DNA from: a virus
Lineage: Duplodnaviria; Heunggongvirae; Uroviricota; Caudoviricetes
Virus record (IMG/VR): IMGVR_UViG_3300032280_000594
DNA length: 30,575 nt
Strand: one strand, 5' to 3'
Under the pieces are notes generated by a model that saw only the letters and a program-made list of their open reading frames with translations, was not told where the DNA came from and did not search any database. Every line of letters begins with the position of its first letter. Within the stretch, counting starts at the first letter, position 1. Positions 8,656 through 30,575 of the stretch are shown one piece after another. The position numbers were made by a program, and so were the translations under genes.

Positions 8656-8663
8656 TATCTTTG
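8656..8663 (+). promoter_or_regulatory. Bacteroidota-type -7 promoter element TATCTTTG
   Basis: TAnnTTTG, 5 nt upstream of ATG 8669. Confidence 0.6.
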
Positions 8664-15693: not shown

Positions 15694-17034
15694 ATGAGAA
15701 TTAAAAAATATTCAGATTTCTTATTAGAATCTCAACTAATATACAAGGATGAGTTTAAAAGCATACTTTATGCTATTAGAAATGATGAGCCTGGTTCACC
15801 TGAGAGTAAAGTAGCAAGTATTTTATTGGAACTTTCTGTTGTTGAATTAGATTTAGTACACAATTATATAAAGGATGTTACAACACCGGGTTTAGTTTCT
15901 TTTATTCCAGAAGATAAAATAAATTTTAATAAAGTTTCAATTGAGCAACACAGAATTGTTACAAAAACAAGTATTCTTAGTGCTTATGGTATTTCAAAGG
16001 ATGGACTAATAAATAATGAGGAAATTAGTTTAATAGGTACAAATGACTTTCCAAATGATTTTAAATTGATTAAAACAATAGATACTGATCTTGTAGAATT
16101 AGAGGATGAGATGTATAGATTAGAAGGCTATTATTTATATTATTTACAAAGTAATTCACATCCTGATAGATTTGTGACTGTTTATAGAAATGTTAATGAT
16201 GGTGATACTCAATCCATATATCCTTATGAGATACCAGAAAATAGAAGAGGTGAAGTTAAAATAGGTAGATTTGTAAATAAACTAATTGATATTTATAAGA
16301 AAAGTGGAAATGATTTAAGTATTGTTGATAATATTACTGCATCAGATGTTGAGAAATTTGTAAATGCTTATACTGCAAGAATATTATTTGAAGAAAGTGC
16401 TTTTAGTAGATTTGAAATAGTTAAAGGTGAAGAAATTAAAAAATGGTATCACGAGTCAAATTATGCTGGTCAACGTGGACAGTTAAATAGTTCTTGTATG
16501 AGATTTGGTAGATGTCAAGATTTTTTTAAAATTTATACAGAGAATCCAGAGGTTTGTCAATTACTAATTCTTAAAGATGAAACTGGTAAAAAGATTGAGG
16601 GAAGAGCTCTTCTTTGGACAACTGTTGATGGTAAAAAATTTATGGATCGTATTTATACTACTAAAGATAGTTTGGTAAAACTATTTGCTAAATGGGCAGA
16701 AGATAACTCTTATATAAATAAAGGTCAAGAAACACATAATTATAGAACACCTTTACTAGACACTATTATTGTTCAAGTAAAACCTAAACTTTATCCAAAA
16801 TATCCTTATATGGATACTTTAATTGATTATGTACCAGATAAAGGAATTTTATGTAATAGAATTGATGTTGAAACTTTAATGAAGTTTCCAGATATTAGAA
16901 AGAAAACCAGAATAGAAGATTTCAAAAAATTCTTTAGTAGAAAAAAAGATGGTAGTGCACACTTTAGTATTGATGGTAAAGATATTACCATTTATAAATT
17001 AAACGATGTTGGTGGTGGTTATGGATTATATTAA
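15694..17034 (+). CDS. putative virion-packaged enzyme, SCM/GRALLW/YPYMDT family (paralog of 11467..12651)
   Basis: Leader MRIKKYSDFLLES; SFIPEDK, GRFVNK, GEEIKKWY, SCMRF, GRALLW, MDRIY, YPYMDT. Confidence 0.85.
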   Translation: MRIKKYSDFLLESQLIYKDEFKSILYAIRNDEPGSPESKVASILLELSVVELDLVHNYIKDVTTPGLVSFIPEDKINFNKVSIEQHRIVTKTSILSAYGISKDGLINNEEISLIGTNDFPNDFKLIKTIDTDLVELEDEMYRLEGYYLYYLQSNSHPDRFVTVYRNVNDGDTQSIYPYEIPENRRGEVKIGRFVNKLIDIYKKSGNDLSIVDNITASDVEKFVNAYTARILFEESAFSRFEIVKGEEIKKWYHESNYAGQRGQLNSSCMRFGRCQDFFKIYTENPEVCQLLILKDETGKKIEGRALLWTTVDGKKFMDRIYTTKDSLVKLFAKWAEDNSYINKGQETHNYRTPLLDTIIVQVKPKLYPKYPYMDTLIDYVPDKGILCNRIDVETLMKFPDIRKKTRIEDFKKFFSRKKDGSAHFSIDGKDITIYKLNDVGGGYGLY

Positions 17035-25120: not shown

Positions 25121-26020
25121 ATGATAGATAAAATAGAACTATTTGGAAAACAAATAGAATTAAAGACACATAACTGTCACCTATTCGATCAAGAAGCACA
25201 ACCCGTTGAAGAACCTTATATAAACTTTTATATAAGAACTAAGTTCTGTAACGCGAAATGTGCTTTTTGTACTTATGCGGATGATGCAAGTAAATACTCA
25301 GCTAAGAAACTACAAGAAGTATTTGAAGAAATTTCTCCTAAAATTAAAATACGAAAGGTTGCCATTTCAGGTGGTGAACCTACTTTATATTGGGATAACT
25401 TCGTAAATATAGTAGAACTTGCTAAAAAGTATGCACCTGATGCTGAGTTAAGTATGAATACTGATGGATTTCGTTGGAAACAATTATTTGAAGATCCAAT
25501 TTATAAAGAGTTTGATTATATTCAACTATCTCGTCACCATTATGATGATGCTATAAATGATGAAATCTTTAAATGTAAAACTCCTACTTTTGATGAGATT
25601 AAATGGGCCGCTGGACTTCAAACACATCCACATCAAATTCAATTTAGATGTAACTTGATTAAAGGTTATGTTGATAACAAGGATGAGGTATTTAATTTTT
25701 TAAACTGGGCTAACTCAGTTGATATAAATGATATAGGTTTAGTTTCTTTAATGCCAATCAATGATTATTCAAAAGAAAATTATATTTACTTTCATATTAA
25801 AGAATTGATTGGAGATAATTTCTTTTTAACAAAAGAATGGAAAAGACATGGTGGAGGTTGTGAGTGTTTTAACTATGTTTATATGCCACATGATGAAACA
25901 TTTAGAAGACCTATGAAAGTATATCACAAGAATACTTTTGCACCGTCAGACATCAAAGAAACACTTGTATTTGATGGACAGAATGTAAGATTAGGATTTG
26001 ACGGAGAGATAATATACTAA
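25121..26020 (+). CDS. radical SAM enzyme, substrate unknown
   Basis: CNAKCAFC (CxxxCxxC), ISGGEP, MNTDG; no SPASM-type Cys cluster beyond CxC. Confidence 0.9.
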   Translation: MIDKIELFGKQIELKTHNCHLFDQEAQPVEEPYINFYIRTKFCNAKCAFCTYADDASKYSAKKLQEVFEEISPKIKIRKVAISGGEPTLYWDNFVNIVELAKKYAPDAELSMNTDGFRWKQLFEDPIYKEFDYIQLSRHHYDDAINDEIFKCKTPTFDEIKWAAGLQTHPHQIQFRCNLIKGYVDNKDEVFNFLNWANSVDINDIGLVSLMPINDYSKENYIYFHIKELIGDNFFLTKEWKRHGGGCECFNYVYMPHDETFRRPMKVYHKNTFAPSDIKETLVFDGQNVRLGFDGEIIY

Positions 26021-26044
26021 AAAAGAGACTTTAAAGTCTCTTTT
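26021..26044. terminator. bidirectional intrinsic terminator
   Basis: perfect 24-nt palindrome AAAAGAGACTTTAAAGTCTCTTTT between convergent genes. Confidence 0.85.
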
Positions 26045-26049
26045 ATTTT

Positions 26050-26337
26050 TTAACAACTACTTCTTTGGTAACCACCACCGCCACCACAACCATCATTATG
26101 ATACTGGTAAGTTGGTGCAGGTTGAGGTGCCGGAGCAGGTCTTACTGGTGCAGCTGGTGCAACATAAGGTTCTATATCATGTTCAACACAAAATTCCATA
26201 TAAGTTGCTTTTTGTACGTCTCCAGTTTTAACTAAGTCATAAACTGCAGCATTAAATTTTTCTTCAAGTGTTGTACCTTGGTATCTTTTGCTATAAAAAG
26301 CATAAAGTTTATTTAATAAGTCTATTTCTTGTGACAT
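26050..26337 (-). CDS. small protein with Pro/Ala linker and Gly/Cys-rich tail
   Basis: ...APAAPVRPAPAPQPAPTYQYHNDGCGGGGGYQRSSC*. Confidence 0.8.
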   Translation of the reverse strand: MSQEIDLLNKLYAFYSKRYQGTTLEEKFNAAVYDLVKTGDVQKATYMEFCVEHDIEPYVAPAAPVRPAPAPQPAPTYQYHNDGCGGGGGYQRSSC

Positions 26338-26357
26338 TATTTTTAATTATTTTTATC

Positions 26358-26672
26358 TTACCAATCACATGCGAATCTTATTGTATCTAGATCGTAATCT
26401 ACTAACAATTTTAGAACTGCTGGATAGTATTTTATTTTGTTTTTCCAGTAATCACCTGCATTACCATCAATTACCTTTTGACACCAGTCTTTTGAATATC
26501 TACTTGATATTGTACCTTCTTCCCACATATCCATGTTGTCAAAGAATTCATTACCATCAAAATCAAAATCATTATTATCGATGAATTCGAAAAAGTCGGA
26601 CGCACTAGCAACCGGTTCAATAAATACTTTTTTATCAACGGACTCGTTTATTTTATCTGTGAATTTTTTCAT
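26358..26672 (-). CDS. putative virion internal protein, acidic
   Basis: Leader MKKFTDKINES. Confidence 0.8.
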   Translation of the reverse strand: MKKFTDKINESVDKKVFIEPVASASDFFEFIDNNDFDFDGNEFFDNMDMWEEGTISSRYSKDWCQKVIDGNAGDYWKNKIKYYPAVLKLLVDYDLDTIRFACDW

Positions 26673-26675
26673 GAC

Positions 26676-27692
26676 TTATATATTAAAATTATTTTTTATA
26701 ATTTCAACACATTCTTCAAATCTTTCTCGCCAAGTTCCACCAACTTCTACAAAATGACAACCTCTATTTACTAATTCATTTTTAATGACTTCATAATGTT
26801 GTTGTCTTTCTTCTAAGAAACTTCTTGTACCATCTTGAACAGCATCACAATCCGGTTTCAAAATAATATATAAATCATACTTTTTCTTCTCAGAAAGTTT
26901 ATTTAAAAACCATTCGGTTTCTTTTTGATGTTCTTCATTAGGACAATACATATCTAAGAATAGATAGGTTGTAATGTCTTCTGTATCACAGAATAATAAT
27001 TTATTTGATCTTTTAATCATCCAATCCTCTAATGTTTGTCTTCCTTCTGAAATAGGAATAAAATCTTCAACACCTACTTTATTACCATTTCCTTCATAAA
27101 CTATTCTACCATATTCATCAACAAAATTGGTTTGAAACCAATTTGCTAACTCTTTAGTCATTGTAGATTTACCAACAGATTCTGGTCCCATTATTGCAAT
27201 TCTTTTTACAAAAAATGGTTTTAATTCATCTGAAATAAAATCCCATTTTTCAAAAGGATTTTCTCTAACTGCAGTTCCCGATACTGGAAAATTAGTTCTT
27301 TCCTTATCTACTAAGAAATGTTCTACACCTAAGTGTTCTGCAAATCCATCACCGTAATCTTCTGATGTAAATACAACATCTAGCTCATCAACTAAATTAT
27401 AAATTTGTGGAACCCAGTAAGAATAGAATTCTTCTAGTGATTCACATTCATAATCATGTTGAGGTAGTCCGGTATCATCAAACTGATATACGATTACATT
27501 AGGGTTGTTTTGGTACGTTTTCTTTAGTCCGAGGTATCTTACGTCACCTGGAATATTTTGTGTCTTATTATGTGATATAATGACGTGAACGTGTTCACAA
27601 TTCTCAATTGCGGTATCAATAAGATACTTATGTCCCAAGTGGAAAGGTGCAAACTTGCCTAAAACTAATCCACTTTTAAACTTTTTTTCCAT
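26676..27692 (-). CDS. nadR: NadR-type bifunctional NMN adenylyltransferase / ribosylnicotinamide kinase (no HTH)
   Basis: GKFAPFHLGH (HxGH nucleotidyltransferase), VFTSEDYG, PVSGTAVR, Walker A GPESVGKST, EYGR, LFCDT, QDGTR. Confidence 0.92.
   Translation of the reverse strand: MEKKFKSGLVLGKFAPFHLGHKYLIDTAIENCEHVHVIISHNKTQNIPGDVRYLGLKKTYQNNPNVIVYQFDDTGLPQHDYECESLEEFYSYWVPQIYNLVDELDVVFTSEDYGDGFAEHLGVEHFLVDKERTNFPVSGTAVRENPFEKWDFISDELKPFFVKRIAIMGPESVGKSTMTKELANWFQTNFVDEYGRIVYEGNGNKVGVEDFIPISEGRQTLEDWMIKRSNKLLFCDTEDITTYLFLDMYCPNEEHQKETEWFLNKLSEKKKYDLYIILKPDCDAVQDGTRSFLEERQQHYEVIKNELVNRGCHFVEVGGTWRERFEECVEIIKNNFNI
26677..26685 (-). promoter_or_regulatory. putative late promoter TAATATATA embedded in last codons of nadR
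   Basis: TTT AAT ATA TAA (F-N-I-stop) contains the motif; 4 nt upstream of ATG 26672. Confidence 0.6.
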
Positions 27693-28207
27693 TGTTTTAA
27701 ACCTGTTATTGCTAAAATTAAAAACACAAAGTAAGTTATTGAAGATAAATATTGTTCTTCATTTAAGAAGAAAACTACAAATAAAATATCTGCAATTATC
27801 CAATAAAACCAAGTATCTATTTTTCTCTTTGCTAAAAGTGTCATTGCGATTAAACTCAATGACGTTGTTATACCATCAAAGTAAGGTGATTTATCACCAG
27901 TCATTATCAGTATAAATGTTATAAATATTGTAAGTAAAAAGCTTGATATTGCTAATATATTTCTATCATGTTTTTCTAGCCATTCTACTTTAGTATCTTG
28001 AATTACATTCCATTTCGACCAACCATATATTGCTTGTATAAAAAATGGAATTTGAAGAAGCATGTTTCCCCAAATATGATTTTCATAAAAGAATAGACCG
28101 TAGAAGATCACTCCTACCATTGCAAAAGGCCATGTGAATATATTATTTTTAACTGCAAATACTACAGATAATAAACTAAAAATGACTGCTATGATTTCTA
28201 TATCCAT
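27665..28207 (-). CDS. pnuC: PnuC-family vitamin (nicotinamide riboside-type) transporter
   Basis: Multiple TM helices; NIFTWP, LLQ, IYGWSKW, PYFDG, WFYWIIAD (WxxWxxxD). Confidence 0.92.
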   Translation of the reverse strand: MDIEIIAVIFSLLSVVFAVKNNIFTWPFAMVGVIFYGLFFYENHIWGNMLLQIPFFIQAIYGWSKWNVIQDTKVEWLEKHDRNILAISSFLLTIFITFILIMTGDKSPYFDGITTSLSLIAMTLLAKRKIDTWFYWIIADILFVVFFLNEEQYLSSITYFVFLILAITGLKQWKKSLKVD

Positions 28208-30255
28208 TAGAATTTATAATTAAATGTCATATAAAAGTTTGTACCAGCGGTGTAGTAAAAACTTCTTGTTATACCATCTGTGATACCTCCAGTTGTCCAA
28301 TTTTTATCCAATATATTATTTACAAATAATCTAATACAAGTATCATCACTAAGATTGTAAGAAATACTTGTATCAACTAAGTGATATTCTGGACAAATAA
28401 ATGAATTGTTATTGTCTAAGAAAGATTGTGCAACATATTTATAATTGGCACCTAGTTCAATCTTACCTAGTTTATAATTTGTAAATAAGTTAGATATAAA
28501 ATTAGGAGTTAAAACTGGCTCAGATTTCACATCATCTAACCAAACTTTATTTTTAGAAAAATTAAATGTTGTTCCGAATTCTAACTTTTTCAATTTCAAT
28601 GTTAGATCACCTTCTAATCCTAATCTATTACTTTTAGTAGCATTTGTTCCAAGAGCAATACCCATTGAGTTTAATTGACCAATTGATACAATTTCATCAG
28701 TAAAATACATTGAGTAAACATTGAATGAACCTTTTACATATTTGGTTATAACCTTAGTTCCTACTTCAAGGTCTCTTACAGTCTCCGGTTTTAAATTTAT
28801 AATATTATTTGGATTTTGACTGCTTGAGTATTCTGAACCATCAATTGTTATACTATGATTAGTATTAGATATATGATCGTAATTTCCTAATAGGTTAGTT
28901 CTACTTGGTTCTCTTGAAGATTTACCAAAACTTACATAAGGTTTAAAAGTATCATTTCCTTGAAATGAAATACCAAATGAGTAATTATTAAAATTATGTT
29001 CATATAATTTATTACCATATTCATCACTGATATATTTTAATGAAGTATTTCTTAATTGATAATCACCTTCTATAATCCAATTTAGTCCTATTTTATATGA
29101 TGTTTTTACAAATATAGTTGCATCAAATTTTTGACCTATATTTTCATAGTTTAATATTGTAATATCTTGATATGTATTTGGATCAGTATATTTCCCAATA
29201 TGTTTTCTTTCGTATGAGTTTAAAGTAAATCCTGGTTGAATTGTAAATCCATTACTTGTATGTTTAACATTATAATATGCACCCCAATTTTCTGAATTTA
29301 GTTTAAGATTTTTAATACCAAAAGATTTATCCTGTTTCTTGTTGAAGTTTGGCATATCATAATCACCATCAACATGAGTAAGGTAAGTACTCAAATTAAA
29401 TATAGTTTGTTCAGAGAACTTACCTGCAACTTGTAGTTGATAGATACCACTTGTGAAATCATCATATTGTGGTTTAATTCCAAATTCTGTTGCTAATATG
29501 TTTGTTGTGGCAGGTGAACCTTCTGGAACGGGTAGCCATGCTTGACCATTTTTAGTTTTACCAAATACTGCATTAAATCTAACTGATGTATATTCATTTC
29601 TATATCCTAATGACGTTGAAAAAGATGAACTTTTACCAGATGAGAAATCTCTAAATCCGTCAGTATAAGTTTCTGATACTCTAAATGTGGCACCAAATCC
29701 TTTTTTAGTAACTCCCGTATTTATTTTTACTGAGGTTTTTCTTGAATTAAAACTACCTAACATAGATGTGAATTCTCCGGATTTTTTATCAAATGGACTT
29801 GTTAAATCCATATTAACTAATCCTACATAAGAACTTGCACCATTAGAAGATACTCCTGCACCTCTGATAATTTGAACAGAGCGTAAACTACTAAGTAAAT
29901 CGGTATAATTAGAAGTATAAACTGCTAAATCTTCACCATCATTTAGTGGTACACCATTTAATGTATAGTTGATACGATTTTGACCCATACCTCTTAAAGT
30001 AAAATAGGAATATCCAAAAGGAGTTCCGTTATCGCTTTGAGCTACGATTGAGGGAGTTTTTGAGAAGAAATAAGGAGTTTCTTGTGCGAAGTAAGTTTTT
30101 ACAGAATCCATCTGTATTGTTTTTGCGGAAGCCGCTTCTAATTTAAACCTTGATGCAGTTATAGTAACTTCATCTAAAGTTTTAATTGTGTCATTTTGTG
30201 CATAAATAGTGGTCGTAAATAACATTACGAGTGCTATTAAAAGTCTTTTTATCAT
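28207..30255 (-). CDS. TonB-dependent outer-membrane receptor (Bacteroidota vitamin-receptor type)
   Basis: Signal peptide MIKRLLIALVMLFTTTIYA|Q (start moved from 30342); TLDEVTITA TonB-box-like; plug motif LRG..QNRINYTLNGVPLND...SVQIIRGAGVSSNGA; beta-barrel strands; terminal Phe (FNYKF). Confidence 0.92.
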   Translation of the reverse strand: MIKRLLIALVMLFTTTIYAQNDTIKTLDEVTITASRFKLEAASAKTIQMDSVKTYFAQETPYFFSKTPSIVAQSDNGTPFGYSYFTLRGMGQNRINYTLNGVPLNDGEDLAVYTSNYTDLLSSLRSVQIIRGAGVSSNGASSYVGLVNMDLTSPFDKKSGEFTSMLGSFNSRKTSVKINTGVTKKGFGATFRVSETYTDGFRDFSSGKSSSFSTSLGYRNEYTSVRFNAVFGKTKNGQAWLPVPEGSPATTNILATEFGIKPQYDDFTSGIYQLQVAGKFSEQTIFNLSTYLTHVDGDYDMPNFNKKQDKSFGIKNLKLNSENWGAYYNVKHTSNGFTIQPGFTLNSYERKHIGKYTDPNTYQDITILNYENIGQKFDATIFVKTSYKIGLNWIIEGDYQLRNTSLKYISDEYGNKLYEHNFNNYSFGISFQGNDTFKPYVSFGKSSREPSRTNLLGNYDHISNTNHSITIDGSEYSSSQNPNNIINLKPETVRDLEVGTKVITKYVKGSFNVYSMYFTDEIVSIGQLNSMGIALGTNATKSNRLGLEGDLTLKLKKLEFGTTFNFSKNKVWLDDVKSEPVLTPNFISNLFTNYKLGKIELGANYKYVAQSFLDNNNSFICPEYHLVDTSISYNLSDDTCIRLFVNNILDKNWTTGGITDGITRSFYYTAGTNFYMTFNYKF

Positions 30256-30278
30256 ATTATTAGATTTTAATTTGGTAA

Positions 30279-30286
30279 CAAAGATA
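30279..30286 (-). promoter_or_regulatory. Bacteroidota-type -7 promoter element TATCTTTG
   Basis: 23 nt upstream of receptor ATG 30255. Confidence 0.65.
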
Positions 30287-30321
30287 TAAATTATTTTTGT
30301 AATAAATACATATTTTTTTAT

Positions 30322-30330
30322 TAATATATA
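30322..30330 (+). promoter_or_regulatory. putative late promoter TAATATATA
   Basis: 28 nt upstream of ATG 30359. Confidence 0.6.
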
Positions 30331-30358
30331 GTTTATAAACAAAAAAAATAACTTAAAA

Positions 30359-30575
30359 ATGGGATTTACTTACAGACAAGGAAATGAAGAAAGATTATCT
30401 ATAGCACAAATGGATAATAACTTTCTTTATGCAGAAGAACAAATAAGTTCTGCAACTGCTTCGATTGCTACTTTAAACACAAATGTTGCGTCAGCTACTG
30501 CTTCGATTGCTACTTTAAACACAAATGTTGCTGCGGCTACTGCGTCTATTGCTACTTTAAACACAAATGTTGCTG
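30359..30575 (+). CDS. probable tail-fibre/whisker coiled-coil protein, partial (runs off window end)
   Basis: Hand-translated MGFTYRQGNEERLSIAQMDNNFLYAEEQISS(ATASIATLNTNVA[SA])n; L-S-x-x-x-M-D-x-N-F resembles fibre N-terminal motif. Confidence 0.7.
   Translation, partial: MGFTYRQGNEERLSIAQMDNNFLYAEEQISSATASIATLNTNVASATASIATLNTNVAAATASIATLNTNVA
30452..30575 (+). repeat. 42-nt in-frame tandem repeat, about 3 copies (truncated by window)
   Basis: units start 30452, 30494, 30536; encode 14-aa ATASIATLNTNVA[S/A]; differences mostly at third positions. Confidence 0.9.

Follow-up and report, generated by a model that had tools for sequence, protein, structure and literature searches.

A host-derived receptor-PnuC-NadR operon in a predicted Bacteroidota megaphage, a probable route for nicotinamide riboside import and NAD+ synthesis

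Genes and expression signals of the locus

We analysed a stretch of 30,575 nucleotides from the IMG/VR virus record IMGVR_UViG_3300032280_000594 (Caudoviricetes), and the whole of this stretch is called the window here. Between 26050 and 30286, on the minus strand, the window carries five co-directional genes, and the first three of these (the triad) encode a TonB-dependent receptor, a PnuC-family carrier and a NadR enzyme that lacks the helix-turn-helix (HTH) domain (Table 1). A first-pass annotation, made from the sequence alone, had described these three as coupled genes behind one promoter, and we found each of the elements that it had named. The receptor stop and the pnuC start overlap in TAATG (pnuC begins on the last base of the receptor TAA), pnuC and nadR overlap by 28 nt, and the motif TATCTTTG lies upstream. 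The span of 26676-30286 that had been given to the unit holds for the genes; its end at 30286 is the putative promoter motif, and the receptor itself starts at the ATG at 30255. A receptor open reading frame (ORF) of 711 amino acids with a TTG start, taken from a mechanical list, was rejected as an over-extension.

We observed 8 exact copies of TATCTTTG in the window, while 2.6 ± 1.5 were expected, and none of 100 shuffles reached 8. Six of the eight copies sit at most 25 nt upstream of ORF starts on the same strand. The looser TAnnTTTG pattern was not enriched in the window (64 copies vs 55 ± 7 expected), and a scan for sigma-70 promoters was uninformative (29 sites vs 28.9 expected). We infer that TATCTTTG is the putative promoter of the receptor-PnuC-NadR unit. 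The copies at 8656, 11436, 13012, 13915, 23339 and 30279 stand 4 to 23 nt ahead of gene starts. Some copies are too near the ATG for a normal leader, which hints at 5' leaders that are very short or absent. At the other end of the unit, the hairpin at 26021-26044 is likely to be a terminator for both the minus-strand unit and the radical-SAM gene that faces it.

It had also been noted that no thiamine pyrophosphate (TPP) riboswitch lies upstream of the unit. This was confirmed by an Rfam search of 25900-30575, in which no family, TPP riboswitch included, appeared at E ≤ 1; the result bears on the known TPP and NAD+ (nicotinamide adenine dinucleotide) riboswitch classes only.

Table 1. Features of the receptor-pnuC-nadR locus (window positions)
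Feature	Coordinates	Strand	Remarks
TATCTTTG, putative Bacteroidota-type -7 promoter element (TAnnTTTG class)	30279-30286	minus	23 nt before receptor ATG
TonB-dependent receptor	28207-30255	minus	ATG at 30255, stop 28207-28209, 682 aa
PnuC-family inner-membrane carrier	27665-28207	minus	180 aa, PF04973
HTH-less NadR	26676-27692	minus	338 aa, NMN adenylyltransferase + ribosylnicotinamide kinase domains
orf104	26358-26672	minus	small gene 4 nt past nadR; no known family
orf95	26050-26337	minus	last co-directional gene of unit
Hairpin + T run	26021-26044		10-bp stem, 4-nt loop; terminator-like site
Radical-SAM gene	25121-26020	convergent to minus-strand unit	borders operon downstream

The encoded proteins

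The receptor shows the traits of a TonB-dependent transporter, i.e. a plug inside a barrel of about 22 strands, a leader, a TonB box and a C-terminal aromatic residue. It matched the Pfam families Plug (2.6e-8) and TonB_dep_Rec_b-barrel (2.9e-23). Read from the translation, the hydrophobic leader covers residues 1-19 and ends in IYA, followed by Q. A TonB-box-like stretch, DEVTITA, is at residues 28-34, the plug extends from about 43 to 143, and the barrel runs to a C-terminal Phe (...NYKF). In an alignment of 15 receptor sequences, the leader end and an L-x-E-V-x-I stretch were near-invariant. The earlier description of the receptor as intact agrees with all of these features and with its ratio of nonsynonymous to synonymous substitution rates (dN/dS), given below.

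The fold was assessed with an AlphaFold2 model built on the 15-sequence alignment (mean predicted local distance difference test score, pLDDT, 80; predicted template-modelling score, pTM, 0.81). The model has a plug followed by about 22 long strands. When it was compared by Foldseek with full-length solved TonB-dependent transporters, the template-modelling (TM) scores were 0.7-0.8. The best match was PqqU/YncD (TM 0.78/0.81), then Fiu, FhuA, FoxA and BtuB, and FecA was also among these matches.

We also considered a SusC/RagA-type label for the receptor, and rejected it. Such proteins have about 1000 residues, an N-terminal extension of the carboxypeptidase-regulatory-like type and a SusC/RagA signature, and a gene for a SusD-like lipoprotein is next to theirs. 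The window's receptor has 682 residues, Pfam finds Plug and barrel only (with no SusC-type N-terminal domain), NCBIfam gives no SusC/RagA match, and the next gene is pnuC rather than susD.

The PnuC protein was recognized by PF04973 (5.8e-46), by TIGR01528 (92 bits, where the cut-off is 42) and by phrog_1880, and it matched the PnuC structure in PDB 4QTN at 8e-8. Its Q58 is the counterpart of Q124 of Neisseria mucosa PnuC, a residue that contacts nicotinamide riboside (NR). At this position, Q was found in 6 of 9 phage and in 5 of 5 related cellular PnuCs, and L in 22 of 27 TPP-linked ones. The pnuC gene of the window is coupled to the gene for an NR kinase/nicotinamide mononucleotide (NMN) adenylyltransferase, and not to a TPP riboswitch.

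NadR has a cytidylyltransferase-like domain and an AAA_28 domain (1e-27), and it matched TIGR01526 (6e-66) and phrog_3462 (1.6e-76). As the alignment to the E. coli NadR model covers positions 62-405 of 411, the protein has no HTH domain. The NadR structures 8x7f, 1lw7 and 9x6f in the PDB matched at 7e-45 to 3e-36, and the HxGH motif, the SGTAVR motif and Walker A are all kept. In a HMMER alignment to 9x6f (E = 3e-36), which is the structure of the phage protein Bas30_86, residues K10, F11, S37, P84, E230 and D275 of Bas30_86 are identical in the window's NadR, E80 is replaced by D, and G89 falls in a poorly aligned loop. K10, F11, S37, E230 and D275 have been shown to be essential by mutation (PMC13464706).

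In comparison with a related contig (L116, receptor 91% identical), dN/dS was 0.14 for the receptor, 0.20 for PnuC and 0.16 for NadR, at a dS of about 0.4. All three genes are under purifying selection and are maintained in the phage.

Phage context, cellular relatives and exchange of the receptor

The triad was found in the same order in three complete huge-phage genomes of 630-735 kb (LR756502, LR756501 and LR745206), and in 18 of the 21 IMG/VR viral contigs that carry the receptor family. It recurs in four phage-like contigs of 34-624 kb, amid dozens of small genes without a family, and receptor homologues of 65-91% identity lie on metagenomic contigs of up to 649 kb. Full-length homologues of the receptor were seen in only 24 of 50,697 phage records; these are the four largest genomes labelled 'uncultured phage', the Prevotella Lak megaphages and five fragments. 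In Lak-A1 the receptor, pnuC and nadR are within 9 kb. Four complete megaphage genomes have exactly one receptor and one PnuC each, and in the megaphages examined the sole receptor is always beside or near pnuC and nadR.

The surroundings of the operon agree with this. L116 keeps the gene order of the window on both operon flanks, which argues against a chimeric join at the operon. The flanks shared with independent assemblies (L116 and L091) and with complete published phage genomes are RNase H upstream, and orf104, orf95, the radical-SAM gene and further small ORFs downstream. For the window gene at 15694-17034, homologues exist in these megaphages and also in Cellulophaga phages. The guanine plus cytosine (GC) content is 26-31% across the window with no break at the operon, and the window is densely filled with small genes of no known family. 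NadR shares 55-75% identity with phage copies, but only 27-37% with cellular ones.

The window could instead come from a host chromosome, a wrongly binned contig or a chimeric assembly, in which case the operon would not be phage-borne. The want of recognizable structural phage genes in the window, the want of a near-identical match in the phage collection and the presence of the same operon in cellular genomes would all suit this. However, the operon recurs with its flanks in L116, L091 and complete phage genomes, the composition is even, small family-less genes abound, and NadR sides with the phage copies. We regard a host or chimeric origin as very improbable, in agreement with the first-pass annotation, which had treated the DNA as viral. 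The window, as homology and synteny indicate, is part of an uncultivated Bacteroidota megaphage related to LR745206, LR756502 and LR756501.

Several observations were made on the genes around the triad. No Pfam match was found for orf104 (N-terminus MKKFTDKINES); it is 97% identical in L116, with a dN/dS of 0.05. No Pfam match was found for orf95 either, and its N-terminal 56 residues are kept downstream of nadR in relatives (tblastn, 48-53% identity in L091, L093 and L004, at the same position). After these conserved residues come a Pro/Ala-rich stretch and then a Gly/Cys tail. The radical-SAM gene is better conserved than the operon (67-76% identity in L004, L091 and L093; 96% in L116, with a dN/dS of 0.08), and it stays beside nadR in relatives. 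In L116 an opposite-strand ORF of 157 amino acids (L116:8577-9050) is inserted between pnuC and nadR and breaks the 28-nt overlap, and in L091 and L093 small ORFs separate the receptor from pnuC. A tmRNA gene (L092:13080-13465, Rfam 53.8 bits) and a tRNA gene (L093:7123-7196) are present in related phage contigs, a few kb or less from the triad. A partial plus-strand ORF at the window end (30359-30574) has three tandem repeats of 13 residues (ATASIATLNTNVA), encoded by a 39-nt DNA repeat. A 488-amino-acid ORF at 1402-2868 had no phage match.

The nearest cellular relatives of the receptor are 27-33% identical and come in three layouts, while the cellular loci overall have 27-42% amino-acid identity to the window. 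In layout A the receptor is followed by PnuC and a full-length NadR, with overlaps as in the window. One set of these loci (set 1) is on uncultured Bacteroidia contigs of up to 1.25 Mb, where NAMPT and a Macro-domain gene come before the triad; on the 1.25-Mb contig, which has the best cellular homologue, the order is NAMPT-Macro-x-x-receptor-PnuC-NadR, with the same overlaps. Zobellia uliginosa DSM 2061 and Flavobacterium sp. DGU11 belong to set 2, and the triad is present in no fewer than 15 further cellular loci. In layouts B and C (Cytophagales and Gemmatimonadota), the receptor and a Pnu carrier go with a stand-alone AAA_28 kinase of about 170 residues. An Rfam search detected TPP riboswitches in five cellular relatives, directly before the receptor in layouts B and C, and these layouts are therefore taken as thiamine systems of the OMthi-PnuT kind. 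The same search found no TPP riboswitch in the layout A loci or in 8 related phage loci.

Quick trees were used as guides only, and our claims rest on careful trees of the receptor and of NadR, and on approximately unbiased (AU) tests. In the careful receptor tree, the 8 TPP-linked receptors form one clade (support 99/98), a sister clade in which none of the 21 phage receptors falls. In the quick PnuC tree, the pnuC genes of the window's group cluster with cellular set 1 (97), i.e. with NadR-linked copies, and in the NadR trees the nadR genes of the group also cluster with set 1 (100). LR756501 and one IMG/VR contig cluster with set 2 for both receptor and NadR. Ready-made host operons were thus taken up by the phages at least twice. 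The operon of the window is, on these trees, derived from cellular Bacteroidota, where the three-gene unit is common.

The first-pass annotation had suggested a repurposed thiamine module. The kinship of the receptor family with thiamine receptors stands, but the trees indicate that the phage took a ready-made host operon and that its receptor is outside the TPP-linked clade. All three parts of the NR-type modules are homologous to those of the thiamine-type modules, and any change of specificity, in either direction, occurred in cells.

We weighed whether the module might nevertheless import thiamine or another vitamin, with a receptor of the OMthi type that works with PnuT and with NadR as a misleading neighbour. 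The receptor family does have members controlled by TPP riboswitches beside Pnu carriers, and three of the four NR-contact residues of the 4QTN PnuC are not kept. Against this stand the separate clade of the TPP-linked receptors and the lack of a TPP riboswitch at the locus and in the related phage loci. The NMN adenylyltransferase domain of the partner enzyme is complete and has no part in the use of thiamine, a thiamine pyrophosphokinase is missing, and Q58 of PnuC sides with NR-type carriers. A thiamine function is therefore considered highly unlikely.

Some observations concern the cellular loci themselves. TPP riboswitches precede a receptor, a Pnu carrier and an AAA_28 kinase in L028 (3193-3824), L051 (2251-4623, three riboswitches), L017, L030 and L041. 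The stand-alone kinase of about 170 residues is a homologue of the NadR kinase domain and stands where a thiamine pyrophosphokinase would usually be; it may represent a kinase for thiamine trapping that has not been described before. A NAMPT-like gene lies 1.7 kb from the receptor in one megaphage (LR756501.1:430260-430955), and NAMPT and a Macro-domain gene lie ahead of the triad in the best cellular homologue (L005:2182-4189), which suggests a larger NAD-salvage island common to phage and host. A Bacteroidota-type triad was also seen in a metagenome-assembled genome labelled Hydrocarboniphaga daqingensis, a gammaproteobacterium (L011, CALRIU020000007.1). It groups tightly with the uncultured Bacteroidia copies, and is probably due to mis-binning or a recent transfer.

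In the phages, the trees of the receptor and of NadR are in strong conflict. NadR of L111 is 75% identical to that of the window, while its receptor is only 31% identical; for L095 the two values are 72% and 74%. The careful NadR tree groups the window with L111, L095 and L091 (100/96), while the careful receptor tree puts L111, LR745206 and others in a different lineage (100/99). In AU tests, the groups taken from the NadR tree were rejected by the receptor data (p = 3e-64 and 5e-8), and those taken from the receptor tree by the NadR data (p = 7e-4 and 1e-5). The simplest reading, for which the support is strong but post hoc, would be that a copy from some other phage or host lineage took over the position of the receptor gene, while the inheritance of nadR was vertical. 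A possible motive for this exchange is the fit to the host TonB or outer membrane, or exposure to rivals. In phages and in cells, at least four receptor lineages retain the receptor-pnuC order and the tight coupling.

These results also bear on a receptor with mainly a surface role, such as remodelling of the outer membrane, superinfection exclusion (by blocking or mimicking the receptor of a competitor phage) or a decoy. Its linkage to pnuC and nadR would then be a legacy of the captured operon. A 2026 preprint has proposed that outer-membrane proteins of huge phages remodel the receptor landscape. The receptor also evolves and is exchanged far faster than nadR, as the window-L111 comparison and the AU tests agree, and fast exchange suits surface proteins in an arms race. 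However, the order and coupling with pnuC persist across these receptor lineages, the plug, TonB box and barrel are intact and under constraint, and each megaphage examined has a single receptor, always close to pnuC and nadR. Surface and transport roles are compatible with each other. We consider a mainly surface role to be unlikely.

Proposed function and comparison with known systems

The explanation that we find best, and fairly probable as a whole, is that the unit is a host-derived operon that imports NR and makes NAD+ in a Bacteroidota megaphage. The unit from 30286 to 26050 would most likely be transcribed from the Bacteroidota-type promoter and translated as a coupled set. The receptor would be exported by the host Sec system, inserted by the host barrel assembly machinery (BAM) and energized by host TonB-ExbBD. 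It would capture a scarce external pyridine nucleoside, most likely NR, into the periplasm, where NR is the simplest choice of ligand in view of the neighbouring genes. NR would then pass the inner membrane through PnuC by facilitated diffusion and be trapped as NMN by the NadR kinase domain, and the adenylyltransferase domain would convert this to NAD+. The earlier proposal of import across two membranes followed by the steps from NR to NMN to NAD+ is consistent with the protein families, the catalytic residues of NadR and the missing TPP riboswitch.

Energy coupling is presumably through the host TonB-ExbBD, as ExbB was found in none of the 4 related megaphage genomes and a TonB C-terminal domain only in LR756501. 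The latter is in a protein with a 268-amino-acid frame in this 735-kb genome (LR756501.1:470226-470459, E = 4.9e-23).

The NAD+ made in this way could serve the needs of the phage in a long infection, and could refill pools emptied by NAD-degrading host defences. An NAD-dependent DNA ligase is present in 3 of the 4 related megaphages and a NAMPT-like enzyme in all 4; general NAD+ demand and counter-defence are therefore equally plausible. The Lak-phage homologue of the receptor is reported to be transcribed in gut metatranscriptomes (bioRxiv 10.64898/2026.10.24.761521).

It is also conceivable that the receptor imports NMN or NAD+ (334-663 Da), which would be trimmed to NR by host periplasmic nucleotidases or phosphatases before PnuC, as in Haemophilus influenzae. 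TonB-dependent transporters usually carry ligands of a size or scarcity that porins cannot handle, PqqU, the closest solved fold, takes up a cofactor of 330 Da, and in the systems studied PnuC takes the riboside only. However, no nucleotidase or phosphatase gene was found in the phage operon or in the cellular operons examined, and no Pfam family matched orf104, orf95 or the small ORFs of L005, L091 and L093. We give this route a rather low probability, but regard it as a real alternative to NR.

A number of points weigh against an NR-importing phage operon. The ligand of the receptor is deduced from its neighbours only. NR is small (255 Da), and bacteria with open porins may have no need of an active receptor for it. 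The residues Q196, N214 and Y242, which contact NR in N. mucosa PnuC, are M, D and F in the PnuC of the window; these positions differ likewise in all the groups compared and do not tell the groups apart. The PnuC and receptor group of set 1 is nearer to thiamine-type modules than cellular set 2 is, and NR and thiamine specificities are therefore evolutionarily close. The groups in the AU tests were named after the trees had been seen. As to the phage itself, no hallmark or structural gene was found in the window, and a PHROGs scan of 20 window proteins returned almost no functional names. When 25 kb of the window were compared with the phage collection by Megablast, no match was obtained, and the link to the megaphages was made only through distant DNA and protein searches. 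The viral origin is supported by homology and synteny with published phage genomes.

A bolder form of the proposal, which we offer tentatively, is that the receptor is the founding phage example of a TonB-dependent transporter family for vitamin B3 ribosides in Bacteroidota. Megaphages would thereby make the infected cell scavenge external NR with high affinity, so that NAD+ could be resupplied independently of the breakdown products that the NAD-reconstitution pathways NARP1 and NARP2 recycle, with receptor alleles swapped between lineages as a cassette. Such swaps could serve to match the TonB or outer membrane of the host, or to escape rival phages and bacteriocins that land on the receptor.

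The first-pass annotation had known of no described phage unit of TonB-dependent receptor, PnuC and NadR. We found no paper, on phages or on cells, that treats the receptor-PnuC-NadR unit as such, and no described TonB-dependent transporter for NAD precursors, in a literature search that left most subscription journals outside. The remark thus holds for the triad as one pathway, but PnuC with NadR is the published NARP3 and such receptors had been noticed before, so that the novelty shrinks to the receptor.

If the proposed function is true, there is a three-gene version of NARP3 that extends over the outer membrane, and this version is standard in the largest known Bacteroidota phages of lakes, sediments, seawater and guts. 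A virus would then install an energized nutrient gate in the surface of its host, and the reading of the phage receptors as carbohydrate importers (SusC) would be corrected. It would also point to a cellular family of TonB-dependent transporters for vitamin B3 that is part-for-part homologous to the thiamine system. The disagreement of the receptor and NadR trees points to an exchange of the surface part in the manner of a host-range module. The practical consequences would be modest, i.e. a component added to counter-defence biology and a candidate part for engineering NR uptake.

The closest known system is NARP3, which consists of Bas30_87 (PnuC-like) and Bas30_86 (an HTH-less NadR) of Escherichia phage TrudiRoth (PMC13464706, Sci Adv 2026; PDB 9x6f/9x6h). 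In E. coli this pair imports NR, rebuilds NAD+ and defeats Sir2-HerA (PMC13464706). The window likewise has adjacent and coupled phage genes for a PnuC-family carrier and a NadR without HTH, which is how NARP3 is recognized at the gene level, with kinase and adenylyltransferase domains kept and key catalytic residues conserved. The differences are that NARP3 is a two-gene module of Enterobacteriaceae phages, while here a receptor gene comes first, is translationally coupled to the others, and is in a Bacteroidota megaphage. Moreover, the genes of the window come from Bacteroidota operons, their likeness to Bas30_86 is moderate (phmmer E = 3e-36), and the system is known here from sequence alone. 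The NARP3 paper has no mention of TonB, the outer membrane, Bacteroidota or jumbo phages (PMC13464706). The receptor would extend the PnuC and NadR steps of NARP3 across the outer membrane, as an active, high-affinity capture.

The cellular Bacteroidota operons share the families, the gene order, the stop/start junction and the overlaps of about 30-40 nt, and the absence of a TPP riboswitch. They differ in that they sit among ordinary chromosomal genes, and one of them is linked to NAMPT and a Macro-domain gene. In the thiamine uptake of Bacteroidetes, OMthi (BT2390), PnuT (BT2396) and Tnr3 are under TPP riboswitches (PMC5613172). This system also has a TonB-dependent receptor, a Pnu carrier and a trapping kinase, and its receptor and carrier families are homologous to ours. 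However, it has the TPP riboswitch, its ligand is thiamine, and trapping is by thiamine pyrophosphokinase (Tnr3), or by the stand-alone AAA_28 kinase in the loci that we examined, rather than by NadR.

The two-membrane logic that ends in metabolic trapping by PnuC and NadR is shared with the NAD uptake of H. influenzae, where the OmpP2 porin, the periplasmic hydrolases NadN and e(P4), PnuC and NadR act in turn. There the porin is passive and the genes are dispersed, while the window has a predicted energized receptor and a single operon, with no hydrolase genes. The PnuC/NadR pathway of that route has been described (PMC2330246).

Phage receptors of the same family have been reported earlier. 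The receptor of Mar_Mega_1 and LR745206 was called 'SusC' and read as a carbohydrate importer (PMC9723777, 2021), and the 22-stranded receptors of Lak and other huge phages were described with a passing mention of NMN-transporter neighbours (bioRxiv 10.64898/2026.10.24.761521). The LR745206 and Lak-A1 copies are 29-31% identical to the receptor of the window, and neither report treats receptor, PnuC and NadR as one NAD-precursor pathway. The best structural match, PqqU/YncD (PDB 9c4o and 6v81), shows that scavenging of a small cofactor of about 330 Da, here pyrroloquinoline quinone (PQQ), is within the reach of such receptors. It has 16% sequence identity to the window's receptor and another ligand and genomic context, and the likeness is one of fold rather than of family membership.

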